In this document: one piece after another, positions 20,027 to 28,537 of the stretch | How positions within the stretch are numbered: position 1 is the stretch's first letter | Layout of the letters: the number at the start of each line of letters is the position of its first letter | Assembly (NCBI GenBank): GCA_963662465.1 | Contig: OY759599.1 | Coordinates: forward strand, 864,001-928,000 | Reading direction: 5' to 3' | DNA length: 64,000 nt | From: Desulfatiglandales bacterium | GTDB lineage: Bacteria > Desulfobacterota > DSM-4660 > Desulfatiglandales > Desulfatiglandaceae | Translations under genes and position numbers: made by a program | The notes under the pieces: generated by a model | Told to the model about the DNA's origin: nothing | Seen by the model: only the letters and a program-made list of their open reading frames with translations | Databases searched by the model: none

Positions 20027-21530
20027 TTATCCCATTGGCAAAGCCAAATCCTTTGCTATGGTCAGGTAGAAGACCGTTTTTTTGCCGGGTTCCGAGCTGA
20101 CCCGAATTTCTCCCCCATGGCGGTGTGCCACCTCCCGGACGATGTTAAGGCCGAGTCCGGCGCCCTCAATCCCTCCGGAGCCGGCATTTCGCTCAAATAG
20201 CTCGAATATCTTTTCCTTATTTTCCGGTTTGATGCCTACGCCGTTATCTGTAACGGAAAGGATATGGAACTGCTCGGTAGAATCATACCCTATCCGGATT
20301 CGGCTTAAGTTGGCGCCACCATATTTCAGGGTATTATCCACCAGGTTGCGTAAAGCGCGGATAAACGACAATTGATCCGCATGAATTTCAACGGACATAC
20401 GGGGTTCAATCCATTCTATCTCCCTCACGCTGAGTCGGGTGGAAAATTCGTCTTTTATTATCCGTAACATCTTGTTGATGCTAATTTCCTCTATTGCCAA
20501 CGGTGCTTCTTTACTGACGATGTAATGGTTTATTTTTTCCACCAGCGTGGCAATATGCTCGCAGGCCTTGACAATTTGATCGCAGTAAGTTTGACCGTTT
20601 TCATCGACGATCTCACCATATTTTTTTTGCAGCAGTCTGGAGAGTCCGTGGATTGCGATGGCTGGGCTTTTGAGGTCATGCACGACGGAATAGGCAAATC
20701 GCTTGAGGTCTTCCGAACTCTTATATAAAGCTTTTTCCGCTTTCTTTCGTTCTTCGTTTTCCGTTTTCAGGTTTTCGTTGGCAAGTGCCAATTCGAAGGT
20801 ACGCTCCCGGACTCTTTGCTCCAATTCCTTTTTTGCCTTACGCAATGCTTCCTGAGTGTGTACCCGCTGAATAGCGGTTCCGAGTCCCATGGCCGCTGTT
20901 TCCAAAATCTCCACATCTTCCAGCGGGATCATATTTTCTCGCTGGTCGGCGACATGGATCAGACCTACAACCTGATTTTCGAGGCGGATCGGCAACAAGG
21001 CAATTGACTCATATCCAAAACGGTTGCACATGTTGCGGGTGGCGCCCTTTTGGTCTTCCGCCACGTTGGCGAGGAAGCGGCTGGTGCCGTTGATATAAAA
21101 TGAGCCGTACGGCGTGAAAAATTCTAAATCCGGATCGATATTCTGAGTAATTACATCGATACACATGCACTGGTCGGTCTTGATCGACAGCGGGCTCTCC
21201 AGTTCATAAAACTCACTGCTGAACCCATAATACGCCTGATAAGGGATATCGCCCTGTTCATTCAGAATACGAATTCCTGCTGCCGGGCAGCCTGTGAACT
21301 GTTTGATCTCTTCCAGAGACTCCCGCAGCAGCACCGGCATTTCATTGTTTCTGTTGCCGATCTCAAGAAAGCGATGCGACAGCTTCAAGGCCCGTTGATT
21401 GTGTGTGCGCTTGCTGATATCTCGGGTAATCCCCCGGTAGCCCAACAGCGCGTCATGCCCGTTAACAATCGGCACGGCATTGGTCTCCACAGTCACTTCA
21501 TGACCATCTTTATGAACAGCCACCACTGCC
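20027..21530 (-). pseudogene. PAS-GAF sensor histidine kinase, N-terminally truncated and chimeric
   Basis: HDLKSP H-box, NLVDN, DNGVGI, GAGLGL; the ORF 5' end is built from unrelated fragments. Confidence 0.75.
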
Positions 21531-21609
21531 GCGATTCCCCCGCCCATCTCAAGCACCCGGTTTACGGCGGCGGCCATGGCGTCCGGACTGCGGCCGATCA
21601 CAACGATTT

Positions 21610-22393
21610 CCGTTGAGGAGCTGGCCACGGTGAATGTGGAGCTGCAAAACAAGGTGGATGAATTTTCCAAGGCCAATGACGACATGCACAATCTTTTGGC
21701 CGCAACGGAAATCGTCTCCCTGTTTTTGGATACCGACCTTCACATTAAACGCTTCACCCCTGCCGCGGCCAACATCATCCGGTTGATTCATACGGACGTG
21801 GGCAGGTCCTTAAATGACCTTAAAACCTGTTTTCCTGCAGTCGATCTGGTCAGTCTGGGGGAAAAGGTGCTGAAAGATCTCAATATGGTGGAGATGGAAA
21901 TCTGTCAACGGATTTGACCTGGTATGCCTTGAAGATCCTGCCCTACCGAACTACCGGAAATGTCATCGACGGTGTGGTCATGACCTTCCTGGATATACAC
22001 ACCGTCAAGCAGGCGGATAAGGTCCGGCGCTTGGCCACTGTCCTGGAAGATGCCAATGACGCCATCACCGTGCTGAATAAGAAGGGCCGGATTCTGCCCT
22101 GGAACAAGGGGGCGCACGAGCTGTATGGATGGACCGAGCCGGAGGCCCTGCAAATGAATTATGCCGATCTTTTCCCAAAGGATCGTGAAAATGACTTTCA
22201 AGACATCATCCATGAATTGACGAAAAACAAAACCATCAAATCCTTCAAGACCCGGCGCATGACAAAAGACAGCAGCATTTTGAGCATCTGGCTGACCGCC
22301 AGCGCCTTGAGCGATGAAAACGGTGAGATGGTGGAGATAGCGATTACGGAACGGGATTTGGCGTGGCTGGTGGGAATGGAGGATCGTCACTGA
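21610..22393 (+). pseudogene. C-terminal PAS region of a CheB/CheR-type protein, frameshifted
   Basis: ELATVNVELQNKVDE...ANDDMHNLL...RFTP...GVVMTFLDI; frame break near 21910. Confidence 0.75.
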
Positions 22394-22394
22394 A

Positions 22395-22575
22395 GCGAAT
22401 CTTACCGCTGCCACTATATCCTTCCCCCACAAAAACCGCAGTTCTTAAGGTCAACAGAAACTTACGCCAATTATGGCGAGGGTTTTTCAGCAACTCATAG
22501 GCGACATTTTTCCTGAACGACAGACTAGCATTGGTGACTATCCCTCTGTAAGCAAACACGACATTTTTTCCGTCT
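22395..22575 (-). mobile_element. Transposase fragment (IS4-like)
   Basis: YRGIVTN...KNVAYELLKNPRHNWRKFLL resembles the N-terminus of IS4-type transposases. Confidence 0.45.
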
Positions 22576-22700
22576 TGATCCGCTTGTGAGCCTTTTTGTT
22601 AAAAGGTTGCCGGCAGCATTAAAATTGCTGAGAGCGAAAAACTTCCTTGACATCCCAATCGGACAGCTATATATTTCCTTAATTGCATATAGGCGCTCAA

Positions 22701-23043
22701 ATGAAAAAATTTATAGAAGTGATGAAAGCCCTTTCCGATCCCAACCGGGTCAGAATCTTGAAGATGCTACAGCACCGCCCCATGTGTGTGTGTGATTCAG
22801 GAAGGACTGGGAATTTCGTAGCCCACCGTGTCCAATCACCTGAAAAATCTCGAAAGGGCGGGTTTGGTTTCTTTTGAGAAAGACGGCCTATGGGTGGACT
22901 ATTTTCTCGCTGATGGAAGTGAAAGTCCATACGCTGGAGTCCTTCTTGGGAACCTGAGACACTGGCTTGAAGACGATGAGGCAGTTTCCCGACTCCTCAG
23001 AAAACTTCCTTCAATACGGAGAGAAAAAATCTGCAAAAAATGA
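22701..23043 (+). pseudogene. ArsR/SmtB regulator with frameshift and internal stop
   Basis: KALSDPNRVRILKML...MCVC, then a shift in the GT repeat, an in-frame TAG, and PTVSNHLKNLERAGLV. Confidence 0.8.
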
Positions 23044-23204
23044 TTTTTTTTGTGCATAACATATCGACATATAACTATGTATAGATTATTAGCGTGGCTA
23101 CTTGGCCGTAAGAATGAAACCTGTCGGTGAAAGGATTATAAACTGAATTTTTATCGCAAGATACGAAGAGAGCAAAGAAAACATAATCTTTTGGGTGAAT
23201 AAGG

Positions 23205-23717
23205 ATGGAGGCAGAAATGTCGCAGGAGGACATAGTTCAGATCAGGGTGGGCAATTGGCCTGTCGGCATTATGGGACTCAAGACTGTGATAGAAGATATG
23301 CTCGGAGAATACGTGGACAAGCCTGATCAGGAAGTTATGGAAGAACTTCTGAGGCGCCTGGGAAAAAGGAATTACATTCCGCAAACGGTACGAGAGAATT
23401 ATGGGACGGCCTTTCTGAGGGAATTTAAGAAATTTTCTGGGAAACCCGTGGAAGATGCGAAAGAACAGGGGCTGGTAATCAAAGTGCTGGGGCCGGGGTG
23501 TGCTCAGTGTGATCGACTGGAGCAGGAGCTCATGCAGGTCATGAGTGAAACCGGTATGATGGCCGATATAGAACATATTAGAGATATCAAGGAGATTGGT
23601 CGCCACGGCGTGATGGGATCGCCGGCCCTAATAATCAACGGTAAAGTCAAAGCGGTGGGAAAGGTTCCGCCGCGAACTCAACTAATTCAATGGCTTAAAG
23701 AAGCGGATGGCAGATGA
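23205..23717 (+). CDS. Thioredoxin-family protein with N-terminal helical domain
   Basis: IKVLGPGCAQC...GVMGSPALIING. Confidence 0.85.
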   Translation: MEAEMSQEDIVQIRVGNWPVGIMGLKTVIEDMLGEYVDKPDQEVMEELLRRLGKRNYIPQTVRENYGTAFLREFKKFSGKPVEDAKEQGLVIKVLGPGCAQCDRLEQELMQVMSETGMMADIEHIRDIKEIGRHGVMGSPALIINGKVKAVGKVPPRTQLIQWLKEADGR

Positions 23718-23751
23718 AAGATTAACAAAACAATGAGAAAGGATTTGCGAT

Positions 23752-23991
23752 ATGGAGATCAAGATTCTGGGACCTGGATGTCCCAAATGTGAGCAGACGG
23801 AAAAACTGGTGAAGGAAGCGGTTAAGGAGTCTGGTATGGAGGCCTCTGTGACCAAAGTCAAGGACATCATGGAAATTGCCAAGCAAGGAGTTTTTATGAC
23901 TCCCGCCGTTGTTGTGGACGGCGAAGTGAAGAGCGTGGGGAAGGTTCCTTCCAAAGAAGATATCAAGGGATGGATAACCAAAAAGATGTGA
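23752..23991 (+). CDS. Small redox-active disulfide protein (thioredoxin family)
   Basis: MEIKILGPGCPKC...TPAVVVDGEVK. Confidence 0.9.
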   Translation: MEIKILGPGCPKCEQTEKLVKEAVKESGMEASVTKVKDIMEIAKQGVFMTPAVVVDGEVKSVGKVPSKEDIKGWITKKM

Positions 23992-24032
23992 ACGAATATT
24001 TATCAGTGACTTTTTTTGGGGAGAGTGAAGAG

Positions 24033-24191
24033 ATGGCTGAAGAATGTTGTACGCCGGGAGGAAACGTCATGATCCTTATTATCCCGGTCCAGGTCTTCTA
24101 CAATGCCAAAGGGAAAGAGGTTTTCAGGCACAAAGGGTTCTATGCGGAAAAAGACGTCCTGAAACAGCTGAAAAAGATGGACGTTAGCTGA
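24033..24191 (+). pseudogene. Deletion fusion of a DGC-type protein N-terminus to a thioredoxin C-terminus
   Basis: MAEECCTPGGNVMIL joined to IIPVQVFYNAKGKEVFRHKGF. Confidence 0.55.
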
Positions 24192-24254
24192 TCTAATATC
24201 CATCATTACAATATATAGAGGACTGCAAAGCTTCGCATTGAAATACGGAGAACA

Positions 24255-24965
24255 TTGATGCTGGAATCGTTTTTTCTGACCGTCAACGAATGGATTGCAG
24301 GCGGCACGGCCATCGCCGCTGTGGGTTGTTTTATCTGGGGCATGATCAGCGTGGTGTTCAGCCCCTGTCACCTGGCTTCCATTCCTTTGATCGTCGCTTA
24401 TGTGGGCGGGCAGGAAGAGCTCTTGAAACCGAGACAGGCCGCATGGTATTCCGTGGCCTTTACCGTGGGGCTCTTTGTCACCATCTCACTCATCGGGATC
24501 ATCTGCGCGTTGTTAGGAAGAATGCTGGGGGACGTGGGCAACTACTGGCAGATCCTGATTGGTCTGGTCCTGGTTTGGGTGGCATTGGGTATGCTGGGTG
24601 TGGAAAAATGTTCCATGTCAGGAAACCTTCTTTCAAAGGTGAAAATTCGCGGCATGGGAGGGGCACTGGTTCTGGGTCTGGCCTACGGGGTCCTTTCCGG
24701 ATCCTGCACTTTCGGGTTTATAGCCCCCATTCTGGCTATTGTGACCGTGCAGGAAAAAGTGGTCACGGGGATTTTGTTCATTCTGCTGTTTGCCCTTGGC
24801 CACTGCCTTCCTATTGTGGTTGCGGGCAGTTCCACCGCAGCGGTAAAGCGCGTGATGGAAAGCAGCCGCTGGCAGGGGGCCGGCAACTGGTTTCGAAAAG
24901 GGGCCGGTGTGGTAATTGGATGCCTGGGTCTCTATTTTATTTTTAACCCGTTTTTTGTGGTGTAA
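24255..24965 (+). CDS. ccdA: Cytochrome c biogenesis / thiol-disulfide transporter CcdA
   Basis: FSPCHLASIP and SGSCTFG Cys motifs; six TM segments. Confidence 0.85.
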   Translation: MMLESFFLTVNEWIAGGTAIAAVGCFIWGMISVVFSPCHLASIPLIVAYVGGQEELLKPRQAAWYSVAFTVGLFVTISLIGIICALLGRMLGDVGNYWQILIGLVLVWVALGMLGVEKCSMSGNLLSKVKIRGMGGALVLGLAYGVLSGSCTFGFIAPILAIVTVQEKVVTGILFILLFALGHCLPIVVAGSSTAAVKRVMESSRWQGAGNWFRKGAGVVIGCLGLYFIFNPFFVV

Positions 24966-24991
24966 AACCCATTTCAAGGAGGTAAAGAATC

Positions 24992-25228
24992 ATGTCGGAC
25001 GCACGTTTATTGGCGGAATGGTTTCCGGAGTTTGCTGAACATCTGGACAAAATGGATGAAACCTACAAGGAAAAGCGGACCATAGATGAAAAACTCGCGT
25101 TCATGAAAGAAGCCGTGCCCTTGATGACGGAGATTTCCGGAAACGACCCGCGGAAGATGATGGCCGAAATAATACCCTTCTGCATGGACATGGATAAGAT
25201 GCCGGCCATGATGAAGGGCATGATATAG
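24992..25228 (+). pseudogene. Probable chimeric remnant (carboxymuconolactone decarboxylase-like N-terminus)
   Basis: Strong RBS; WFPEF...IDEK followed by an unrelated Met-rich tail. Confidence 0.4.
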
Positions 25229-25246
25229 TAACCGGAAGGGTTGAAT

Positions 25247-25627
25247 ATGTCGCAGCATGAAGATCATATATCTAAGAAACCGGCGGATCTATCACAATGT
25301 ACAAAATTTTTATTACTGAATGAAGAGAAAGGCTGAAAAGATGGATGAGCCATCCCTCAACCGGCAGTTGGCCGGCGCTTGCTGAAATTTCCTGATGATT
25401 CACAGATCGGTGTTATGGGTCTCGACGATATTATGGCTGAACTTTGCTCCGAAGACAGAAAGCCGACCGATGAGACCGCCGAAGAGATCATCAACAGGCT
25501 GGAAGAAAAAAAGAACTTTATTCCCTCGTCTGAACGTGTCCGTAGAGACTACGCTTATGTCCTGCTGAGGGAATACAGAAAGTACATGAAGGATCACCAC
25601 AAGTCGGGGGTGATTAGCGGGCAATGA
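25247..25627 (+). CDS. Candidate selenoprotein, 126 aa, with in-frame UGA at 25334 and 25346
   Basis: GGAAGG RBS, then ATG 25247, in frame with ORF 25379-25627; reads G-U-K-D-G-U-A; hairpin CCGGC-AGTTG-GCCGG just downstream. Confidence 0.6.
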
Positions 25628-25690
25628 AAATCCTGTATGTCTCAGGGAGTCCGAGAAAAGACAGCAATACGGACTTGGTTCTAACTTCGC
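25624..25690 (+). pseudogene. Flavodoxin/FMN reductase N-terminal remnant
   Basis: MKILYVSGSPRKDSNTD, then homology is lost. Confidence 0.6.
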
Positions 25691-25789
25691 CCACTTAGAC
25701 GGAGAAACGAAAAAAGTTTAATTTGAGAAAGTGCAGAACATTTTAAGTCGACGGGGAGTCTGCATGCATCTCAGGCCTGAAGGGCCGTT

Positions 25790-26330
25790 ACATGTTGACG
25801 AGATCGCTGTTCGTATAGTGGTTATAGCATCGGGGGATATCACTTTCTTGTGCTGAGGTGGTTAGCATGATTACGGGTATTCTCTTCAAGACGGGATGGT
25901 TTTTCACCTGTTTCAACACCTCTATGCCATCGATGCTCGGTAGTTTGATGTCGAGTAAAATCAGGCATTGCGAACCATATCTCTCTCTGTCCGAATACGT
26001 CCCACACGGTTGAACGGATAATCCAATGCTTCCTCGCCATTGATAACGACGTCAATTCGGTTCACGTTACCGGTCTTCGAAATTGTCCGTTTGGTCAGTT
26101 CTGCATGGGCTTCCTCGTTTTCCACAAGCAAGATCGTAGAGCAGCTTGAACCGTTCATGTATCACGCCTCTCGTCGTTAAGGGCGAAAAAAAAGGTGCTT
26201 CCTTTCCCTGACTCCGACGTCAACCAGACTCTCCCGCCATGATGTTCGATGATTCACTGTACGATGGTCAGGCCGATACCGGTGCCTTCCTTGACCTTCC
26301 CCGACCTTCACTGCCGACGGGAGCCTTTGA
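25790..26330 (-). pseudogene. Decayed histidine kinase C-terminus plus frameshifted receiver protein
   Basis: GTGIGLTIVQ*IIEHHGGRVW...GSTFFF; ILLVENE...NGEEALDY / LILLDIKLPSIDGIEVLK...IPVIMLTTS. Confidence 0.7.
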
Positions 26331-26459
26331 AAGATCTGGAGTACTCGTTCACGAAACCCACAGTATAGGATTTTTCATCTTACGAACCGGGAAATAAATA
26401 TTTTTCTTGACATGGCGGAAAAAATAGGTTTACATGCCAACCGTGCGGCAGGTAAGGTT

Positions 26460-27038
26460 ATGAATAGAGAAGATCGATTAGAAAAAATATACGAGAAGGC
26501 GCTCGAATTGTTCGTGGCCAATGGTTACGACCAGACCGCATTGTCCCAGATCGCAAAAGCCTTGGGTCTGACGAAAGCCGGCCTTTATCATTATTTCAGC
26601 AGCAAGGAAGATCTCCTGTTTTTTATTCATGAAGGACACATGAAGCGGGTTTTTATCCCCATTCTTGAAGCGGCTGAAAAAATCTCCGATCCTGAAGACC
26701 GGCTTGTATATTTTATTAAAAATTATACCCTGAAAGCCATGACCCGGGACGCTTCAGCCCGTGTACTCGTTCATGAAACCCACAATCTGAAAACGGAAAA
26801 CCGGAAAAAGATAAACGCTGTGTGGCGAAAAGGATTAGATCTCATCCGGGATAGCCTTTCCGAGATGGAAAGCCAGGGAAAGGTGTTGAATATCAACAAA
26901 ACTTTCGCCGCTTTTGCGTTGATCGGGATGTGCAGTTGGACGTTTTACTGGTTTGATTATGAGCAGCAAGCGTCCGGTGAGGAAGTTGCGGACACCTATG
27001 CAAGGATCTTTTTGAAAGGCGTCTTAAATACGCCTTAA
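26460..27038 (+). CDS. TetR-family regulator (copy 1)
   Basis: ALELF...GYDQT...IAKALGLTKAGLYHYFSSKEDLL; GMCSWTFYWF. Confidence 0.92.
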   Translation: MNREDRLEKIYEKALELFVANGYDQTALSQIAKALGLTKAGLYHYFSSKEDLLFFIHEGHMKRVFIPILEAAEKISDPEDRLVYFIKNYTLKAMTRDASARVLVHETHNLKTENRKKINAVWRKGLDLIRDSLSEMESQGKVLNINKTFAAFALIGMCSWTFYWFDYEQQASGEEVADTYARIFLKGVLNTP

Positions 27039-27119: not shown

Positions 27120-28537
27120 ATGACAAAATTCATACTCAAGGAACTGTCCCGTTACGCCATCGGCACCTATGGCGACATCATTTATCGAAACGCATTGCTT
27201 TATCCTGAAAATACCGCCTTTAAGTGCGGAGCGGAAAGCCTCACCTTTTTTTAAGTTCAATGAGCGCGTCAACCGCCTGATTCATGCTTTAAAATCGCAT
27301 GGGGCCGAAAAAGGGGATGTGCTTGGGATTTTGGCCTGGAATTGTCTTGAGTTCACCCAGGTTTACGGGGCTGCCATGAAGGGCGGTTTTATCGCCTCGC
27401 CCCTGAATGCCCGGTTGCAGGCGGACGAACTGGACTATCTGATCAACTATTCCGAGACCCATACCCTCTTTGTGGGGCCGCAACTGGTGGATCTGGTAAA
27501 TGTTCTGCGGCCCAGAATTCCGATGGTCAAACACTTTGTTTCAATCGGATGTACCGCGCCGGGAATGATCCCCTATGAGGACTTCATTGCCGGCCATTCG
27601 GAAGCGGAACCGGATGTGCGGGTGGATGAAGATGATCCGGTTTTCACCTTTTATACCAGCGGCACTACGGGCGTTCCCCGGGGGGCGCTCTACACTCAGG
27701 GACGTGCCATTGACGACACAAGGCGGTTTCCGGCGGCCCTCTGTGTGGAGCAGGGGGATAAACAGGTTCAAATCATGCCGCTTTTTCATGTGGGCGGGGC
27801 CAAGAACCTGTGGGGGTATTTTTTTGTGGCGGCAACGAACATCATCATACCCCAAATATCATTTGATTCTGAAGCGACGCTTCAGATCATCCACGACGAG
27901 AAGGCCACCGACATTCACATCGTACCCACGCACCTGGGCATTTCTGGCGTTGCCCCAGGTAGACGACTATGAGCTGGGAAGCCTCAAACGCATGTTTTAC
28001 GCCGCCTCCCCCATGCGGATCGTTTTGGAATCGGGCGTTGATGCTGCTCCCGGCGAGGTGGGAGAGATCGTGGTCAAGAGTAAGGCCACCATGCTCAAGT
28101 GGTGGCGCAAACCTGAAGAGACGGCCCAAACCATTGTGGATGGATGGGTGCATACTGGCGATATGGGCGTCTACGATGAAAGCGGCTATATCTATATTGT
28201 AGACCGGAAAAAAGACATGATTGTATCAGGGGGTGAAAACATTTTTCCCCGGGAGGTGGAGGAGATTTTCTATCAGCATCCTGCCGTTCTGGAGGCGGCG
28301 GTGTTCGGAATCCCAGATCCCTACTGGGTGGAAAAAGTGCATGCGGTGGTGGTGCTGAAGGCCGATTATGATCCCACGGAACAGGAGATCATCGATTTCT
28401 GCAAGGAAAGGCTGGCGCGTTTCAAGGCGCCCAAGAGTCTTGAATTTGCATCGGATATCCCCAAAAATCCGGCCTGAAAAATCCTCAAGAAACAACTCAG
28501 GAGCAGATATTGGGAAGGCGTGGACCGGAAGATTTAA
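27120..28537 (+). pseudogene. Acyl-CoA synthetase pseudogene
   Basis: Frameshift in the T-run near 27250, a second shift near 27935, an internal deletion near 28015 that removes YGQTE, and a TGA at 28475 in PA(G)KILK. Confidence 0.85.

Follow-up and report, generated by a model that had tools for sequence, protein, structure and literature searches.

A predicted two-selenocysteine protein family with elastic U-x(2-4)-U spacing in arsenic-resistance gene clusters

In the window, that is the whole stretch of 64,000 nucleotides analysed, a small gene is interrupted by two in-frame TGA codons. Whether these codons are decoded as selenocysteine (Sec), and what a protein with two such residues could do in its genomic context, is the question raised by this locus. 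A preliminary description had proposed a di-selenocysteine protein with a U-x-x-x-U motif and a SECIS-like hairpin. The positions on which it was built (the GGAAGG ribosome binding site, ATG 25247, the TGAs at 25334 and 25346, TTG 25379 and the hairpin) were all found to be correct.

The interrupted gene and its homologs

The gene possesses the following features.

25247..25627, + strand: gene with a 126-codon frame and a 126-aa protein, predicted Sec at U30 and U34 (read-through translation, homologs)
25234..25239, + strand: Shine-Dalgarno-like GGAAGG, 7 nt 5' of ATG 25247 (sequence)
25334..25336, + strand: UGA 1, codon 30, predicted Sec (TGA in 137/137 distinct homologs)
25346..25348, + strand: UGA 2, codon 34, predicted Sec (TGA in 137/137 distinct homologs)
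25361..25375, + strand: hairpin CCGGC (25361-65), AGTTG (25366-70), GCCGG (25371-75) (folding, homologs)
25373..25615, + strand: folded core, residues 43-123, an unnamed domain with a predicted beta-hairpin and three predicted helices (AlphaFold2)

The code-11 ORF list contains only an 82-aa piece of this gene, which starts from TTG 25379. The terminal stop of the gene is also a TGA (25625-25627), and GGAAGG is a weak variant of the Shine-Dalgarno (SD) sequence, outside the motif set counted across homologs. Two sequencing runs of a single sample, perhaps the source sample, gave assembled contigs with 0 differences over 25044-26046; assembly errors are therefore not the cause of the TGAs at 25334 and 25346. 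The contigs of the same runs were also identical to the window over 22709-24895 and 24875-25063; both TGAs and the broken neighbouring genes are thus present in the DNA itself.

When 209 genomes of the order were searched with read-through of TGA, 28 long matches were obtained, the window gene included, all of them with at least two internal TGAs. A metagenome scan added 79 loci and a genome scan 64. From 173 loci (L004-L176), 4 fragments without the anchor were left out, and two in-frame TGAs were found in 167 of the 169 anchored loci. L164 and L173 keep both TGAs with a 1-nt insertion between them. Removal of duplicates gave 137 distinct homologs, in which Cys, Trp/TGG, TAA or TAG was never observed at either UGA site. 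The two U residues are separated by 3 residues in 108 homologs, by 2 in 21 and by 4 in 8. The pair of U residues in the proposed U-x-x-x-U motif is therefore conserved and its spacing is not fixed, the family being better described as U-x(2-4)-U. The terminal stop varies freely among the same homologs (TAG 68, TGA 35, TAA 32, contig edge 2). The constancy of TGA at the two internal sites against this varying terminal stop is the strongest evidence, with counts that come from related sequences and are not independent events. Where hosts are named, most belong to the Desulfobacterota (Desulfatiglandales, Desulfomonilaceae, Syntrophorhabdales, Desulfonema magnum); a small number of bins carry the labels Nitrospiraceae, Spirochaetes and others. 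One carrier, Desulfonema magnum 4be13 (locus L134), is in culture. No match to the family was found in plasmid and phage collections. A divergent member, L210:3432 (G592), lies directly after acr3 in a small genome; its motif Q-U-VGDV-U widens the spacing-4 type.

The codons around the UGAs are under coding selection. In the homologs, the codons of Gly29, Lys31, Asp32 and Gly33 of G-U-K-D-G-U show synonymous third-position changes. The window gene was set against 79 homologs sharing its 29-codon leader. Uncorrected pN/pS is lowest at residues 26-35 (0.13), followed by the core (0.31), and is higher in the leader (0.74) and in the hairpin codons (0.82), with pS lowered to 0.26 in the last. All 79 leaders are free of in-frame stops, whereas stops interrupt 44 and 77 of them in the alternative frames; the region upstream of the UGAs had been assumed to be coding, and this holds. 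An in-frame upstream ATG or GTG with an SD motif was found in 115 of the 137 homologs; 16 have an upstream start without SD, 2 have no start and 4 are at a contig edge. The length of the leader ranges from 7 to about 30 codons.

These data also bear on the reading that no selenoprotein is made, in which either a leader peptide stops at UGA1 and translation of the core starts anew further downstream, or UGA is translated as Trp. Re-initiation could use an ATG at position 45, where gene callers start, but this codon is present in 69 of 136 homologs and a start codon between UGA2 and Phe48 is absent in 49 of 133. Starts downstream of UGA2 lack an SD motif in 83 of these 133 homologs and possess one in a single homolog, and neither TAA nor TAG replaces TGA at the two sites. 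The protein database contains 219 relatives, and most of the 120 matches listed are truncations of about 78 aa, as expected from the earlier proposal that standard pipelines shorten the gene. Trp at the two sites, which the preliminary description had named as a finding against Sec, does occur there in the form of W-x-x-G-W entries. Seven full-length entries carry W at both UGA sites. All seven are on contigs of 2.3 kb or less; in two of them the last residue is a W at the place of the homologs' stop, and one differs hardly at all from L080, whose DNA has TGA. Since no DNA locus shows TGG, the seven entries are probably UGA=Trp gene calls. The Trp reading itself was rejected in view of the 35 homologs in which UGA is the terminal stop and the lack of TGG at any locus. 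As a whole, an explanation without recoding is very improbable.

The SECIS-like hairpin and the Sec machinery of the host

The hairpin has a 5-bp stem and a stem-loop energy of -8.1 kcal/mol. From UGA2 to the start of its loop are 17 nt, from UGA1 29 nt; the loop G stands at 18 nt and 30 nt, respectively. The bSECIS model, in the portion of PMC13188914 that outlines it, has a loop of 3-9 nt with G in the first two places, a stem of 4-16 bp, a distance of 16-37 nt from the UGA and an energy of -7.5 or lower. In our own scan, which is distinct from bSECISearch, the window hairpin fits this model for both UGAs. Its stability is not exceptional in comparison with shuffles (z -0.03 to 0.50), and the strict scan found a comparable hairpin at 361 of 5000 random TGAs of the host genome.

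Comparison across homologs was more informative. The strict 5-bp stem is kept in 82 of the 137 homologs, the inner pairs being often broken, and under a relaxed rule the hairpin is present in 131 of 137 versus 156 of 600 random TGAs; conservation of the hairpin in homologs had been suggested earlier as a check. The loop AGTT is near-invariant. Val41 is encoded by GTT in 132 of 133 Val codons, versus 27% genome-wide, and a similar preference is seen at Ala40 (GCA in 56 of 59) and Arg43 (CGG in 111 of 116). The stem pairs at 87.9% over 114 distinct segments and shows 29 changes affecting both sides; 0 of 500 shuffles came as high, and slid registers of the stem are 10-60% paired, all below the true register. 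In 137 of 137 homologs the loop is situated 17-23 nt from UGA2 and 29-35 nt from UGA1. Consensus folds of both spacing-2 groups recovered the stem; in that of the 99 spacing-3 sequences it was not recovered (-0.44 kcal/mol). As an internal control, a peroxiredoxin gene of the host located outside the window (C1:3269839, G000) was inspected. It carries TFV-U-ATE of the known TxxU type, and its UGA is followed at 17 nt by the AGTT loop of a 7-bp hairpin. The SECIS-like hairpin of the preliminary description is therefore upheld by its fit to the model, its loop and its paired stem in homologs, and it probably serves both UGAs. Rfam models gave 0 matches over 22000-26500 at E<=1. A second hairpin of the window, GAUGG-AUGAG-CCAUC, which encloses UGA2, was absent from the family consensus folds and was dropped.

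The genes for Sec insertion, which had been proposed as a check, were found in the host genome. A tRNA-Sec is present, and selA, selB and selD are above cut-offs in a profile search; selD carries a TGA of its own. Among hosts of the family, selA was over the cut-off in 44 of 50 in a first set and in 58 of 62 in another, which mixes carriers of the Sec form, carriers of the Cys form and unclassified ones. Co-occurrence of selA was dropped as discriminating evidence because 377 of 401 genomes of the phylum have selA. With both TGAs in all 137 distinct homologs, coding selection around them and the Sec machinery in the host, the di-selenocysteine reading stands, and the two UGAs are very likely decoded as Sec, as judged from sequence.

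Gene neighbourhood, domain and Cys relatives

The neighbouring genes in the window are as follows.

22701..23043, + strand: arsR/smtB-family regulator with a frameshift near 22796 (split into two pieces that lie in different frames; contigs agree)
23205..23717, + strand: MTH895/ArsE-type thioredoxin fused behind a Cys-free copy of the unnamed domain (TIGR00412 over cut-off)
23752..23991, + strand: MTH895/ArsE-type small thioredoxin (TIGR00412 over cut-off)
24033..24191, + strand: deletion-fusion remnant of the 5' part of a putative zinc-binding gene, which we take to be DGC-type, and the 3' part of a thioredoxin gene (translation compared with intact neighbours)
24255..24965, + strand: intact CcdA/DsbD transmembrane-domain protein (PF02683 over cut-off; 77% to a homolog over 234 aa)
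24992..25228, + strand: probable fusion remnant of the 5' part of a presumably CMD/AhpD-like gene and a small Met-rich gene (51% match at 25037-25189)
25624..25698, + strand: 24-codon gene stub overlapping the Sec-gene stop (ATGA), presumably flavodoxin-like (translation)

The region 22701-25698 thus carries the arsR frameshift, two apparent internal deletions and one stub; the decay of neighbouring genes mentioned in the preliminary description is real, and the contigs agree with it. Another contig has the 5' part of the 24992..25228 remnant in common with the window and diverges from it at 25092. A permease and acr3 are missing from the window operon, and neither acr3 nor arsD was found in the host genome, where an ArsM-like gene is present elsewhere. 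No lesion was seen in the Sec gene; this copy is intact but may be a poorly used leftover of a decayed operon. No RNA run was among the carriers listed. Decay is also visible beyond the ars-type operon, in a gene split over two frames at 27169-28477, which we take to be acyl-CoA synthetase-like, and in upstream kinase pieces at 20027-22393, presumably of a sensor kinase.

Neighbourhoods were compared in 66 distinct loci of at least 4 kb, using 5 kb upstream and 4 kb downstream where available. The neighbours are Acr3 in 35 loci, ArsR-like proteins in 23, thioredoxin in 19, CcdA in 16, ArsC-like proteins in 15, ArsP/SaoE-like proteins in 12, MoaD-like proteins in 9, ArsM in 6 and a cluster which is presumably DoxX/rhodanese-like in 13. 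One representative per neighbour cluster was scanned, and Acr3, ArsR and ArsM pass the cut-offs, with ArsC and the ArsP-like protein below them. Acr3, ArsC or ArsM is present in 42 of the 66 loci and, with ArsP or ArsR added, in 48; in the span examined, 18 loci have none of the five. In 14 loci acr3 ends within about 600 nt upstream of the Sec gene. The earlier assignment to an ArsR/thioredoxin/CcdA operon was correct in its metal(loid) and redox context, but the typical cluster has Acr3, which the host genome has lost. A motif scan, as distinct from a family search, found an ArsA or ArsD motif in 0 of the 66 loci, with a Walker-type motif used for ArsA.

The folded core is predicted with high confidence (pLDDT above 90 for residues 41-110), and the N-terminal 40 residues, which include both Sec residues, form a low-confidence tail. 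For the short U-x-x-U form AlphaFold2 gave the identical picture of a core and a low-confidence tail. No NCBIfam family was found for the window protein at E<=0.1 and Pfam likewise gave no match. No selenoprotein family matched 13 read-through homologs or 25 of 26 distant homologs, the one match being to the AhpD part of a fusion, and neither the 13 read-through homologs nor the cores of the 26 distant ones matched any Pfam or NCBIfam family. A sequence search of solved structures gave nothing under E 0.1, Foldseek against PDB gave no match at E<=0.001, and ESM Atlas gave no usable match for the core or a Cys homolog. The best Z scores in VIA-align were 5.7 and 5.4 and none reached 8; the best rows are mostly homeodomain-like three-helix bundles, and ArsD was not among the matches listed. 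The likeness of the core to the N-terminal domain of the 23205 fusion, noticed earlier, is confirmed (38% over 61 aa, E 1e-11). A complex prediction for the core and this thioredoxin fusion (score 0.07, mark 0.32) was counted neither way.

A profile search of 1.84 billion representatives gave 192 matches, of which 145 were examined. Of these, 42 were unaligned at the anchor and 41 too short upstream, leaving 62 assessable distant representatives. Their N-terminal tail carries CC in 34, C-x(1-4)-C in 7, one Cys in 9, W-x-x-x-W in 1 and none of these in 11. One distant homolog (P0123) possesses CxxxC; the tail is too variable for exact column pairing with Sec. Whether homologs have Cys or TGA at the two sites had been proposed as a check; the close ones show TGA and have no Cys version, and the Cys forms are more distant paralogs with CC or CxC. 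These paralogs can adjoin the Sec gene within one operon. In L207:6075-8966 (G259), three members of the family stand in tandem after arsR-acr3: first one with CC, then the Sec member U-VGGC-U, which has an additional Cys, and last one with CxC. An extra Cys near the Sec pair occurs in only 9 of the 137 homologs. A third form of the domain is Cys-free and fused to MTH895-type thioredoxins, as at 23205. In the single database proteins P0162 and P0266 the core is fused to AhpD/CMD or a ferredoxin-like Cys motif. In trees, the Sec forms are placed together, beside or among a few Cys forms, without firm support. A quick tree put them in one group (SH-aLRT 84, 5 rows skipped); in a careful reduced tree this group appeared in only 25% of bootstraps and P0123 and P0132 fell in the same unresolved group, so a single origin of the Sec form was not upheld.

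Possible function and relation to known families

The best explanation overall, with a rough probability of 0.5, is a Sec-Sec protein whose U-x(2-4)-U tail binds trivalent arsenic for ars clusters. A single downstream hairpin would direct Sec insertion at both UGAs, and the predicted flexible tail on a small helical domain would capture As(III). The two selenols may, with about even odds, bind As(III) or methylarsenite by analogy with the Cys-rich N-terminus of ArsD, without the ArsA ATPase. It is more weakly suggested that bound arsenic would be handed over to Acr3, ArsP or ArsM for efflux or methylation, and that the selenol pair would be reset by MTH895-type thioredoxins and CcdA. Against As(III) binding, two selenols provide only two of the usual three As(III) ligands. 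A wider picture, which is tentative and rather doubtful, is a selenium-based arsenic chaperone of Desulfobacterota. One SECIS would serve two Sec residues, and a di-selenol arm would deliver to Acr3 or ArsM without ArsA. Tandem Cys and Sec paralogs would act together with the putative Sec-Sec protein of the MoaD-like kind as a graded relay, and tolerance to arsenic would be set by the supply of selenium.

The U-x(2-4)-U pair could instead be a diselenide/diselenol redox shuttle between the thioredoxins and CcdA of the operon and ArsC or ArsM, and not a metalloid trap. The U-x-x-U form, found in 21 of the 137 homologs, mimics CxxC spacing, the domain occurs fused to an MTH895-type thioredoxin and to the AhpD/CMD or ferredoxin-like parts of P0162 and P0266, and thioredoxin and CcdA are frequent neighbours; however, the protein has no thioredoxin fold and its motif lies in a low-confidence tail. 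The spacing is moreover elastic and the Cys homologs mostly have adjacent CC, which both fit metal(loid) binding better than a tuned redox centre. A redox shuttle is the main rival, though less likely than arsenic binding. Arsenic binding by the tail is also preferred over a selenol-based arsenic or metal sensor with a three-helix core that binds DNA or a regulator, which is improbable. Such a role is hinted at by the homeodomain-like structural rows, by the median net charge of +3 of helix 3 and by a few JGI entries named 'predicted transcriptional regulator', but a Z below 8 for a helical bundle may reflect merely a common arrangement, the core as a whole has a median net charge of 0, and the operons already have ArsR and contain up to three paralogs in tandem. 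More improbable still, the UGAs could act mainly as a selenium-dependent translation gate for the core, the selenols having no chemical role. The weakly constrained leader of variable length and the thioredoxin-fused copies without Cys or Sec would suit a gate, yet the Cys paralogs that stand alone retain their pair of Cys residues in that tail, which indicates that thiol/selenol chemistry predates the UGAs.

Among known systems, Table 1 of PMC13188914 lists 119 selenoprotein families with domain identifiers, and none in that table has the domain of the window protein. The bacterial two-Sec proteins listed in it are the metal-binding UxxU protein NF041115, the FmdB-type TIGR02605 (UxxU), a Prx-like UxxU protein, TsoB (NF045694, UxxxxU), MbdU (NF045648) and the UXX-star families. 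The HMMs NF041115, TIGR02605, NF045694, NF045648, NF041114 and NF041211 gave no match to the window protein. The catalogued two-Sec proteins likewise have their UGAs within a few codons of each other, carry the bSECIS-type hairpin inside the coding sequence, come from anaerobes and have a metal(loid) or redox context, but they have other domains, and the window family varies in spacing from 2 to 4 within one family. ArsD, as described in part of PMC12415280, binds As(III) via Cys12, Cys13 and Cys18. ArsD (PF06953, NF033727) is likewise a small soluble protein of ars operons with an N-terminal thiol cluster, comparable to the CC tail of the Cys homologs here; in contrast, it has no sequence similarity to the family, uses thiols in place of selenols, and no ArsA/ArsD motif was found in the 66 loci. 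Neither PF06953 nor NF033727 matched the window protein or the family homologs tested. The resemblance of the Sec protein to ArsD is at most one of function, and it does not belong to the ArsD family. The N-extended form of MTH895/ArsE (TIGR00412) occurs in the same operons and its extension, as at 23205, is homologous to the core, whereas the Sec protein has neither a thioredoxin domain nor a CxxC in a thioredoxin fold and the fused copies lack the Cys/Sec tail; TIGR00412 and PF13192 gave no match to the window Sec protein.

The SAO and Tso operons (Haft and Gwadz; Haft and Tolstoy), as far as they are covered in PMC13188914, contain selenoproteins clustered with metal(loid) exporters. Clustering of selenoproteins is similarly seen here, with a predicted Sec-Sec MoaD-like protein in 9 of 66 loci, one TGA-interrupted ArsM and an ArsP/SaoE-like permease, but the gene set of the window family is built around Acr3, ArsC and ArsM, as compared with what that source covers. 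No Sao or Tso model reaches its cut-off for the window protein. Text searches of the literature, which did not extend to Haft and Tolstoy 2025, Deng et al. 2026 or the BSepDB sequences, turned up no account of the family; the families of Haft and Tolstoy 2025 are included in Table 1 of PMC13188914 and in NCBIfam 20.0. We conclude that this is a real and uncatalogued family of proteins with two predicted selenocysteines from arsenic-resistance clusters, in which the U-x(2-4)-U spacing is elastic.

The need of some methods for close Cys homologs is stated in PMC12013277, in its text on the subject, as a limit in selenoprotein detection. This new family is cut short by standard annotation and tends to escape such Cys-homolog-based methods. 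It ties selenium use directly to arsenic-resistance clusters in anaerobes of sediment and groundwater. The 137 variants, with UGAs 2-4 codons apart and one hairpin, are a natural experiment on decoding, in which the question of one SECIS for two UGAs and the range of distances become directly testable.

Three further observations were made in the neighbourhoods. A small Met-rich protein of 70-80 aa with one Cys (P.C motif) is present in 11 of the 66 loci, often adjoining the Sec gene (for example L057:1619-1846 and window 25037-25189), and has no NCBIfam match. An arsenite methyltransferase gene (L045:43-669, NF008823 over cut-off) contains an in-frame TGA at AYTS-U-VAGA and is a catalogued Sec form of ArsM. 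All 9 copies of the MoaD/SAMP-like neighbour (L042, for example L042:3946-4245, L052, L057, L059, L074, L098, L146, L152 and L163) carry near their end a pair of adjacent TGAs and, directly after it, G/R/S-G-G-x-x-(G/D)-stop; homologs also occur in L208 and L209. This neighbour is predicted to be a second hidden Sec-Sec protein of these clusters, and in most copies the TGAs are followed, at about 20 nt, by a hairpin whose loop is of the AGTT type.
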